DNA of 64,000 nt from Escherichia phage PE37, in the sequence record NC_054929.1; one strand, written 5' to 3'. The position numbers and the translations under genes were made by a program. Shown here in pieces: positions 61,727 to 62,554 of the stretch; within the stretch, counting starts at the first letter, position 1, and every line of letters starts with the position of its first letter. The notes beneath the pieces are model-generated. The model worked only from the letters and a program-made list of their open reading frames with translations. It searched no databases and was not told where the DNA came from.

Positions 61727-61799
61727 TGGGAATTAGCCAAGTTGGTAAGGCACTGGATTTTGATTCCAGGATGCAAAGGTTCGAGTCCTTTATTCCCAG
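61727..61799 (+). tRNA. tRNA-Gln (anticodon UUG)
   Basis: cloverleaf by eye: acceptor TGGGAAT/ATTCCCA, anticodon stem CTGGA/TCCAG, loop TTTTGAT, T-loop TTCGAGT. Confidence 0.85.
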
Positions 61800-61800
61800 C

Positions 61801-61887
61801 GCGAGAATGGTCAAATTGGTAAAGGCACAGCACTTAAAATGCTGCGGAATGATTTCCTTGTGGGTTCGAGTCCCACTTCTCGCACCA
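61801..61887 (+). tRNA. tRNA-Leu (anticodon UAA), type II with long variable arm
   Basis: acceptor GCGAGAA/TTCTCGC, anticodon loop CTTAAAA, T-loop TTCGAGT, encoded CCA. Confidence 0.85.
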
Positions 61888-61892
61888 AATTT

Positions 61893-61966
61893 GCGGATAT
61901 CGTATAATGGTATTACCTCAGACTTCCAATCTGATGATGTGAGTTCGATTCTCATTATCCGCTCCA
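61893..61966 (+). tRNA. tRNA-Gly (anticodon UCC)
   Basis: acceptor GCGGATA/TATCCGC, anticodon stem TCAGA/TCTGA, loop CTTCCAA, encoded CCA. Confidence 0.85.
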
Positions 61967-61976
61967 ATTTAATTTA

Positions 61977-62050
61977 CTCCGTGTAGCTCAGTTTGGTAGA
62001 GCGCCTGATTTGGGATCAGGAGGTCCAAGGTTCAAATCCTTGTATGGAGA
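61977..62050 (+). tRNA. tRNA-Pro (anticodon UGG)
   Basis: anticodon stem CCTGA/TCAGG, loop TTTGGGA, T-loop TTCAAAT; acceptor has G-U pairs; no encoded CCA. Confidence 0.8.
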
Positions 62051-62052
62051 CT

Positions 62053-62142
62053 GGAGGCGTGGCAGAGTGGTTTAATGCACCGGTCTTGAAAACCGGCAGT
62101 CGCTCCGGCGACTCATAGGTTCAAATCCTATCGCCTCCGCCA
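62053..62142 (+). tRNA. tRNA-Ser (anticodon UGA), type II
   Basis: acceptor GGAGGCG/CGCCTCC, anticodon stem CCGGT/ACCGG, loop CTTGAAA, long variable arm, encoded CCA. Confidence 0.85.
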
Positions 62143-62147
62143 GTTTT

Positions 62148-62223
62148 GCTGATTTAGCTCAGTAGGTAGAGCAACTCACTTGTAATGAGAAGGTCGGCGG
62201 TTCGATTCCGTCAATCAGCACCA
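62148..62223 (+). tRNA. tRNA-Thr (anticodon UGU)
   Basis: acceptor GCTGATT/AATCAGC, anticodon loop CTTGTAA, T-loop TTCGATT, encoded CCA. Confidence 0.85.
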
Positions 62224-62224
62224 A

Positions 62225-62299
62225 GGCCCTGTAGCTGGAAGGTTCAAGCAAGCGACTCATAATCGCCAGATGGTGGTTCAATTCCACCCAGGGCCACCA
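62225..62299 (+). tRNA. tRNA with CAU anticodon (Met or lysidine-type Ile)
   Basis: acceptor GGCCCTG/CAGGGCC, anticodon loop CTCATAA, T-loop TTCAATT, encoded CCA. Confidence 0.8.
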
Positions 62300-62308
62300 A
62301 ATTAATTT

Positions 62309-62395
62309 GGGGAGTTATCCCGTAGAGGTAGCGGTGTGGACTGTAAATCCATTGTCATTGCGACTCGGGTGGTTCGACTCCATCACTCCCCACCA
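62309..62395 (+). tRNA. tRNA-Tyr (anticodon GUA), type II
   Basis: acceptor GGGGAGT/ACTCCCC, anticodon loop CTGTAAA, variable-arm hairpin, T-loop TTCGACT, encoded CCA; D-arm atypical. Confidence 0.75.
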
Positions 62396-62399
62396 ATTT

Positions 62400-62474
62400 G
62401 GATGTGTAGCTCAATGGCAGAGCGATCGCCTGTTAAGCGATTGGTTATAGGTTCGAATCCTATCACGTCCGCCA
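62400..62474 (+). tRNA. tRNA-Asn (anticodon GUU)
   Basis: acceptor GGATGTG/CACGTCC, D-stem GCTC/GAGC, anticodon stem ATCGC/GCGAT, loop CTGTTAA, T-loop TTCGAAT, encoded CCA. Confidence 0.88.
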
Positions 62475-62478
62475 AATC

Positions 62479-62554
62479 CGAGGCATAGCTCAGAAGGAAG
62501 AGCAAGGACCTTCTAAGTCCTAGGTCGTAGGTTCGATCCCTACTGCCTCGACCA
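62479..62554 (+). tRNA. tRNA-Arg (anticodon UCU)
   Basis: acceptor CGAGGCA/TGCCTCG, D-stem GCTC/GAGC, anticodon stem AGGAC/GTCCT, loop CTTCTAA, T-loop TTCGATC, encoded CCA. Confidence 0.88.

Follow-up and report, generated by a model that had tools for sequence, protein, structure and literature searches.

The ten-gene tRNA cluster of Escherichia phage PE37 is very probably a standard segB-free T-even operon carrying tRNA-Tyr and tRNA-Asn

In bacteriophage T4 (NC_000866), eight transfer RNA (tRNA) genes and two genes for stable RNAs are arranged in the order Gln-Leu-Gly-Pro-Ser-Thr-Ile-segB-Arg-rnaD-rnaC, the segB gene between Ile and Arg encoding a GIY-YIG-type homing endonuclease. In 2008, Brok-Volchanskaya et al. 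reported that the tRNA regions of T2L, RB1 and RB3 are homologous to that of T4 but devoid of segB, and listed in them genes for Gln, Leu, Gly, Pro, Ser, Met, Tyr, Asn and Arg together with two open reading frames (ORFs) (PMC2330249). The preferred cut site of SegB was mapped to the tRNA-Asn gene, and in T4 x T2L crosses SegB homing was found to swap about 1,250 base pairs (bp) containing the Met, Tyr, Asn and Arg genes and the ORFs (PMC2330249). Here we describe the tRNA cluster located on the plus strand at positions 61727-62554 of a 64,000-nucleotide (nt) stretch of Escherichia phage PE37 (NC_054929.1); this whole stretch is referred to below as the window. We consider it very probable that the locus is a standard segB-free, T2-type Tequatrovirus tRNA operon, that its tRNAs serve supply and counter-defence together, and that it represents the segB-minus allele of the homing system. 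This reading is based on the agreement between two tRNA callers, on a gene order and flanks that match those of T4 and T2, on the identities of the individual genes and on the number of records in which related arrangements are found.

When the whole window was searched with ARAGORN, exactly ten tRNA genes were called, all on the plus strand, and nothing else (Table 1). All ten reach at least the gathering score of the Rfam covariance model RF00005 (29 bits), and ARAGORN agrees on every one; nine of them score between 59 and 74 bits (E values of 1e-10 to 1e-14), the Asn gene ranking first. According to the ARAGORN boundaries the intergenic spacers are, in gene order, 0, 5, 10, 1, 5, 1, 9, 4 and 4 nt, and the terminal CCA is encoded by eight of the ten genes, the exceptions being Gln and Pro. 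Ten cloverleafs had been drawn by eye in a preliminary description of this DNA; their coordinates and anticodons match those of ARAGORN, and the spacers, given there as 1-9 nt, have to be corrected to 0-10 nt.

The Tyr gene obtained the lowest score, 30.2 bits against the threshold of 29, and its D arm is irregular, as might be expected of a false positive or of a decayed gene that would leave a functional set smaller than ten. However, the score is low because the general RF00005 model misaligns this class II gene: the acceptor stem is moved by 2 nt and the long variable arm is read as an insertion. With the ARAGORN boundaries, a complete class II tRNA-Tyr is obtained, in which all 7 bp of the acceptor stem (GGGGAGT/ACTCCCC) are formed, A73 is present and CCA is encoded. 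Furthermore, several hundred records contain the gene with an identity of at least 95%, and 85 of its 87 nt are those of the T6 tRNA-Tyr, which has been detected by Northern blotting and rescues infection (PMC13096335). A spurious or decayed Tyr gene was therefore dismissed as having next to no chance of being the case. Given the intact cloverleaf and the match to a functional T6 tRNA, the Tyr and Asn calls stand, both having also passed the covariance-model check that the preliminary description had proposed for them.

Table 1. Features of the PE37 tRNA cluster and its flanks. Positions are those of the window; CCA indicates whether the 3' terminal CCA is encoded; aa, amino acids.
Feature	Positions	Strand	ARAGORN anticodon	RF00005 score (bits)	CCA	Remarks
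ORF of 95 aa, homolog of T4 trna.2	61342-61629	+				Same position as T4 trna.2 and as a coding sequence of phage Nami; PHROG 2023 (unknown function)
Predicted middle (MotA/AsiA-type) promoter	61631-61657	+				Pattern match; identical to T4
tRNA-Gln(UUG)	61727-61800	+	ttg	67.4	no	Abuts Leu, dimeric-precursor arrangement
tRNA-Leu(UAA)	61801-61887	+	taa	59.3	yes	Class II; identical to T4
tRNA-Gly(UCC)	61893-61966	+	tcc	65.8	yes	Identical to T4
tRNA-Pro(UGG)	61977-62051	+	tgg	66.8	no	1 nt before Ser; identical to T4
tRNA-Ser(UGA)	62053-62142	+	tga	62.6	yes	Class II
tRNA-Thr(UGU)	62148-62223	+	tgt	72.9	yes	
CAU-anticodon tRNA, Ile2 type	62225-62299	+	cat	59.9	yes	
tRNA-Tyr(GUA)	62309-62395	+	gta	30.2	yes	Class II; not in T4
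tRNA-Asn(GUU)	62400-62474	+	gtt	74.1	yes	Not in T4
Predicted preferred SegB recognition site (27 bp)	62450-62476					Exact string at the 3' end of Asn
tRNA-Arg(UCU)	62479-62554	+	tct	68.1	yes	T2-type allele
ORF of 116 aa	62571-62921	+				Within the tRNA/stable-RNA unit; PHROG 3355 (unknown function); in T2, not in T4
rnaD homolog (species 2 stable RNA)	62918-63037	+				Alignment to annotated T4 rnaD
rnaC homolog (species 1 stable RNA)	63044-63182	+				Alignment to annotated T4 rnaC, nearly identical
Intrinsic-terminator-like hairpin and T run	63236-63261	+				Terminator scan; hairpin at 63236-63253

The cluster lies between the trna.2 homolog and rnaD/rnaC, on the early/middle strand, and displays the core order Gln-Leu-Gly-Pro-Ser-Thr-Ile...Arg of the T-even tRNA operon. 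Its genomic position, an essentially identical leader, the two stable RNAs and the dimeric-precursor spacing are shared with T4. The Leu, Gly, Pro and Ser genes are those of T4, except that the T4 Ser gene does not encode CCA (CCG-TAA compared to CCGCCAG in the window), and Thr is identical at 73 of 76 positions; the T4 Ile gene also lacks an encoded CCA. From the CAU-anticodon gene on, the two sequences diverge completely and homology is recovered only at rnaD. At the position of segB, PE37 carries the Tyr and Asn genes, and a 116-aa ORF is present between Arg and rnaD where T4 has none. No endonuclease-like ORF was found in the ORF list between 61300 and 63300, and neither of the two real ORFs of that interval has a Pfam match. 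Two statements of the preliminary description are thus borne out: its statement that T4 has eight tRNAs with an endonuclease gene inside the cluster, and its observation that Tyr and Asn are additional here while the endonuclease is missing.

The divergent block is instead that of T2 (AP018813), in which the CAU and Asn genes are 100% identical to those of the window, Tyr is identical at 86 of 87 positions, Arg at 75 of 76 and the 116-aa ORF at 97%. As the CAU, Tyr, Asn and Arg genes are contiguous and no segB ORF is present, the locus belongs with the segB-free allele described in T2L. T2 itself has only nine tRNAs because a 133-aa ORF stands where the window has tRNA-Thr, and its tRNA-Gln has the T4-type anticodon arm, unlike that of the window. 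T6 is annotated as Gln-Leu-Gly-Thr-CAU-Tyr-segB-Arg, six of these seven tRNAs being recovered by ARAGORN and Thr being missed. In sequence, the Arg(UCU) and CAU genes that the window has in common with T2 bear no relationship to those with the same anticodons in T4 and T6 (50% and 61-65% identity, respectively; 50% and 61% with T4); the isoacceptors of the segB-linked and the segB-free alleles are therefore of independent origin.

The distribution of these arrangements was analyzed by BLAST in the GenBank phage collection. With a segment of 1.7 kilobases (kb) spanning the cluster, 1,059 phage records were matched; identity reaches 97-98% in the best of them, and these best matches are all Tequatrovirus (T4-like coliphages and Shigella phages). 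Escherichia phage BECP11 and similar genomes share 97.6% identity with the final 25 kb of the window. If only records with a query coverage of 80% or more are counted, the 179-nt Tyr-Asn segment is found in 434 records, in 374 of which the best match reaches 95% identity or more, compared to 126 records for the T4-type segB. A module of about 190 bp with a tRNA-His(GUG) gene between Asn and Arg is, by the same count, found in 216 records. Such an added tRNA-His is carried by the sister genomes 4E10, JLBYU22 and AR1, and 11B_SA_NWU has an endonuclease gene as well; no tRNA is recognisable in the 113 nt that separate Asn from His in these sister phages. Phages Nami (vB_EcoM_Nami), ime09 and EcNP1 have the same gene set, order and spacing as PE37 and are 97.7-97.8% identical to it over the 1.7 kb, with point differences only; Nami, ime09 and others are annotated with this ten-gene set, which ARAGORN also called in Nami. 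The preliminary description had implied that the locus was unusual, a view it would have given up had the same ten tRNAs been universal in close relatives. Literally the set is not universal, but it is very common and was published in 2008, and the claim of unusualness has to be abandoned. The Tyr-Asn state is common among the relatives and, as judged from the 434 Tyr-Asn records against the 126 segB records, it is T4 and not PE37 that is the exception.

The absence of segB is accompanied by the presence of its target. The preferred SegB recognition site GGTTCGAATCCTATCACGTCCGCCAAA is present as an exact string at the 3' end of the Asn gene (Table 1). It opens with the published GGTTCRANTCC motif and differs from the corresponding site in the Ser gene of the window at exactly the five positions named in the 2008 study, G6, A16, G18, A26 and A27 (PMC2330249). 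As Asn carries this preferred site, the PE37 locus is the recipient, segB-minus allele of the known homing system, and cleavage of the site by SegB is predicted. If a segB-positive phage such as T4 infected the same cell, the segB-free block Ile2-Tyr-Asn-Arg would be cut and replaced; such replacement would explain why T4 has neither Tyr nor Asn.

The gene with the CAU anticodon requires a separate assignment: ARAGORN and most GenBank annotations label it Met, and the T2L gene was called tRNA-Met (PMC2330249). Among 5,426 E. coli genomes, its best match is an annotated tRNA-Ile, at 81.6% identity, compared to only 58% identity with metT/metU. Its anticodon arm is that of E. coli tRNA-Ile2, and its acceptor stem GGCCCTG/CAGGGCC contains the pairs C4-G69 and C5-G68, positions at which metT and metU, as tRNA-Met, have other pairs. 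These two pairs are determinants for TilS. The gene also occupies the position of tRNA-Ile in T4, and among the codons enriched in the window AUA ranks second. Combined, these observations led us to conclude that the CAU tRNA is of the Ile2 type and not a Met tRNA, with a predicted lysidine that would make it an AUA reader; that it is an elongator tRNA-Met is very improbable.

Codon supply is the classical explanation for the tRNAs of T4, which speaks for the possibility that the ten tRNAs of PE37 are there only to meet the AT-rich codon usage and the amino-acid demand of this phage, in which they would have no role in defence evasion. Codon usage in 68 non-overlapping ORFs of the window (19,268 codons) was compared to that of 42 annotated genes of E. 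coli MG1655 (14,790 codons). The codons enriched over E. coli include AGA (8.6x), ATA (5.4x), GGA (4.1x), TCA and ACA (3.8x each), ACT (3.5x), AAT (3.1x), TTA (3.0x), TAT (2.3x), CCA (1.9x) and CAA (1.7x). The eight codons cognate to the tRNAs with U34 or lysidine (k2C) rank 1-5, 8, 15 and 17 of 61 sense codons by enrichment (Mann-Whitney p = 6e-7), and the two most enriched amino acids are Tyr (1.64x) and Asn (1.58x), each of which is served by a single tRNA species (isoacceptor). Enrichment was higher in minus-strand ORFs (12.7 versus 6.6 per thousand for AGA and 15.2 versus 9.7 per thousand for ATA), which, from the annotation of relatives, mostly encode structural proteins of the baseplate, tail fibre and neck. 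A role in codon supply, raised in the preliminary description, is thus in keeping with the ranks of the cognate codons and with the demand for Tyr and Asn. The position of Tyr and Asn as the top over-used residues provides a simple supply rationale for these two additions, beside the published counter-defence role.

This second role has been documented for tRNA-Tyr. The Septu nuclease (PtuAB) cleaves tRNA-Tyr in its variable arm, and infection is rescued by the T6 tRNA-Tyr, amplification of whose gene is an escape route of T6; T4, which has no Tyr gene, is strongly restricted by Septu and T2 is resistant (PMC13096335). In T5, tRNA-Tyr counters retron-Eco7 (PMC11555353). The Tyr gene of the window belongs by sequence to the family of the T6 and T5 genes: it has the phage-type variable arm, and both its variable arm and its T arm are identical to those of T5. 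By comparison, E. coli tyrV is only 62% identical to it and has a variable arm 2 nt shorter. An rV5-like phage carries a gene identical at 84 of 87 positions (97%), and the family extends at about 87% identity by BLAST into coliphage and Salmonella phage genomes of 83-89 kb. In T6 the Tyr gene adjoins segB and its amplification is driven by SegB; the window has no segB, and the T6-type amplification route is therefore unavailable to it.

For Asn and Thr, the relevant nuclease is AriB of the PARIS system, which cuts the E. coli tRNAs Lys, Thr(UGU) and Asn(GUU) at U36-A-A-U-C/N41 (the slash marks the cut), the T5 tRNA-Lys being protected by substitutions at positions 39 and 41 (PMC12409363). The tRNA-Asn of the window, 62% identical to E. 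coli asnT, reads U36-A-A-G-C/G41 where asnT has U-A-A-U-C/C and thus carries the substitutions U39 to G and C41 to G. The tRNA-Thr, identical to E. coli thrU at 64 of 76 positions, reads U36-A-A-U-G/A41, the pair 30-40 being flipped with respect to thrU (C40 to G). These changes lead us to infer that both tRNAs may resist AriB. The replacement of host tRNAs cut by nucleases, also mentioned in the preliminary description, is therefore consistent both with these data and with the literature (PMC13096335, PMC11555353, PMC12409363).

Against this background, a role restricted to supply appears unlikely. It is favoured by the strong match between cognate codons and enrichment ranks and by Tyr and Asn being the top amino acids, and also by the fact that the phage has no tRNA-Lys, so that neither PrrC nor PARIS would be bypassed through tRNAs alone. 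However, the resistance of T6 to Septu requires a tRNA-Tyr that differs by 2 nt from that of the window, whereas T4 without Tyr is sensitive (PMC13096335), and the Asn and Thr substitutions fall exactly at the AriB cut site. In addition, many relatives add a tRNA-His although no amino acid is less enriched than His in the window ORFs, where its use is 0.56x that of E. coli; codon supply therefore does not explain that addition.

The anticodon arm of tRNA-Gln (61753-61769) is dimorphic among the relatives. The window has the arm CTGGA-TTTTGAT-TCCAG, the loop of which is that of E. coli glnU and which is matched at 99% identity or more by 289 records. In T4, T2 and T6 the arm reads TAGCA-CTTTGAC-TGCTA: eight of the 17 bases differ without loss of any of the five pairs, and no difference is seen elsewhere in the tRNA, so that all eight differences between the Gln genes of the window and T4 (66 of 74 positions identical) lie in the anticodon arm. 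The arm looks like a swapped cassette. As a pattern scan of IMG/VR gave two contigs, too few for this purpose, the two alleles were assessed from identity bands in the GenBank phage records.

Counter-defence might also be considered as the only role, the tRNAs being chiefly nuclease-proof or surplus replacements and the codon match a by-product of AT-rich composition. Rescue by phage-encoded tRNA-Tyr, tRNA-Lys, tRNA-Thr and tRNA-Asn has been published (PMC13096335, PMC11555353, PMC12409363), and an anticodon-loop hypothesis has been put forward (PMC10264068). The Tyr family is 78-97% identical across unrelated coliphage groups (T4-like, rV5-like and T5) when the host gene reaches only the value given above, and the dimorphism of the Gln arm would fit the same explanation. 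In contrast, the codons read by the eight core tRNAs are exactly those that are rarest in E. coli, AGA and AUA among them, and the codon ranking departs far from randomness, the more so in the ORFs of the minus strand, most of which are structural. Moreover, we know of no nuclease directed against most of the ten tRNA species. We consider an exclusive counter-defence role quite unlikely. A broader proposal would be that the cluster forms a modular counter-defence island, the parts of which are exchanged and diversified under the pressure of host tRNA nucleases. This proposal takes Asn (G39/G41) and Thr (G40) as AriB-proof variants and the Tyr family, shared across coliphages, as aimed at Septu and retron-Eco7; it reads the dimorphism of the Gln arm as the result of selection by a putative anticodon-arm nuclease, and the His gene of the sister phages, not explained by demand, would follow the same logic. 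It is a tentative proposal, which we regard as possible but doubtful.

Several points weigh against the reading that we prefer, a standard segB-free operon acting in supply and counter-defence together. On the side of supply, A/U-ending codons that are not cognate to the tRNAs (ACT, CCT, TCT and GCT) are also enriched, so part of the enrichment reflects the AT-rich composition, and the E. coli genes used for comparison come from a 50-kb sample. The strict Watson-Crick codons TAC (0.75x) and AAC (0.65x) are depleted; the case for Tyr and Asn supply therefore rests on total amino-acid demand and on wobble by G34. On the side of counter-defence, the T6 tRNA-Tyr is itself cut by Septu and acts by dosage, and a resistant variant is therefore not the mechanism there (PMC13096335); nor does that study ascribe the Septu resistance of T2 to the T2 tRNA-Tyr (PMC13096335). 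The cluster contains no tRNA-Lys, the main target of AriB, so that a bypass of PARIS would not be achieved by Asn and Thr on their own. Finally, expression, processing and aminoacylation of the tRNAs in PE37 are all assigned by homology.

Concerning transcription, the 2008 report, in its remarks citing Broida and Abelson, states that in T4 the middle promoter mainly transcribes the whole cluster, segB included, and that transcription ends after the species I RNA (PMC2330249). In PE37, a MotA box TATGCTTTA at 61631-61639 is followed, after a 12-nt spacer, by the -10 element TATTAT at 61652-61657, 70 nt before Gln. In the alignment, this region is base for base that found upstream of the T4 tRNA cluster and it fits the MotA box/-10 consensus; the MotA-type promoter proposed in the preliminary description is accordingly present as a sequence pair. 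From this homology to T4, we infer that 61631-61657 functions as a middle promoter. Overall, the number of sites returned by the promoter scan did not exceed that expected from shuffled sequence, and only the homology argument therefore has weight. The hairpin and T run downstream of rnaC are the probable end of the transcription unit.

Taken together, the locus would operate as follows. The ten tRNAs, the small ORF, rnaD and rnaC would be transcribed as one unit of about 1.6 kb, starting at the MotA-dependent middle promoter around 61631-61657, probably with read-through from an upstream early-type promoter, and ending around 63236-63261. By analogy with T4, host enzymes would process the precursor through RNase P cleavage, 3' trimming and, for Gln and Pro, addition of CCA. 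The mature tRNAs would read the A/U-ending codons AGA, AUA, GGA, UCA, ACA, UUA, CCA and CAA, which are overused with respect to E. coli, and the extra tRNAs would serve Tyr and Asn, the amino acids with the largest rise in demand. The phage copies would also replace host tRNAs destroyed by abortive-infection nucleases, a role suggested for Tyr by the near-identical T6 gene acting against Septu PtuAB and by T5 against retron-Eco7, and for Thr and Asn by the substitutions at the cleavage site of PARIS AriB.

An early-promoter-like site, composed of TTTACA, a gap of 17 nt and TACTAT with a TG upstream, is present in three identical copies on the plus strand, at 60352-60380, 60715-60743 and 63955-63983. 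The first precedes an internal-virion-protein ORF (60411-60695, PHROG 4363), the second a 61-aa ORF at the position of T4 trna.4 (60772-60957), and the third lies at the end of the window; the site at 60715 may be the source of read-through into the tRNA cluster. The ORFs upstream of the cluster occupy the positions of T4 trna.4, trna.3 and trna.2, the 95-aa trna.2 homolog being the last protein gene before the tRNAs. The sequence of the tRNA middle promoter, ATGCTTTAAGAATTATTTGTTATTATTAA (61632-61665), is repeated on the plus strand at 2884-2917, with 29 bp exact or 34 bp with one mismatch. This second copy lies upstream of a 111-aa ORF (2939-3274), the N-terminus of which we take to resemble that of the T4 co-chaperonin gp31.

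Downstream of the tRNAs, the 116-aa ORF is 97% identical to the coding sequence that follows tRNA-Arg in T2; the 5' end of rnaD overlaps with the stop codon of this ORF. No Pfam family matches it, and a homolog search gave seven clusters only, all from T4-like phages or metagenome sequences. An AlphaFold2 model of moderate quality was obtained (predicted local distance difference test, pLDDT, 67.6; predicted template modelling score, pTM, 0.60), with which Foldseek found nothing below E = 0.16 in the PDB and only uncharacterised proteins of T4-like phages in BFVD. In the 3' part of rnaC, an acceptor-like stem closes a T arm that resembles those of tRNAs (GGTTCGAATCC, 63160-63170). No Rfam family matches rnaD or rnaC at its gathering score or up to an E value of 1, and weak matches to U12 and isrK were rejected as chance; the biological roles of both RNAs are still unknown (PMC3014915). 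The terminator hairpin with its tail, CCCGACC(G/A)AAAGGTTGGGGCTTTTTGGTAT, occurs twice on the plus strand about 560 bp apart, at 63236-63265 after rnaC and at 63795-63824 after a 157-aa ORF (63311-63784).

For the annotation of related genomes, three points emerge from this comparison. First, the reference phage T4 is atypical, having presumably lost Tyr and Asn to segB homing. Second, the gene routinely labelled tRNA-Met in these phages appears to be an Ile2-type AUA reader. Third, the Asn gene doubles as a predicted landing site for a homing endonuclease. The ten-tRNA arrangement itself is already known, having been mapped in T2L, RB1 and RB3 in 2008 and being present in hundreds of deposited Tequatrovirus genomes, and a function for the extra tRNA-Tyr was shown in T6 in 2026 (PMC13096335). 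Within this group, the PE37 cluster is, as judged from its sequence, T4-like in its first six genes and T2-like in its last four.

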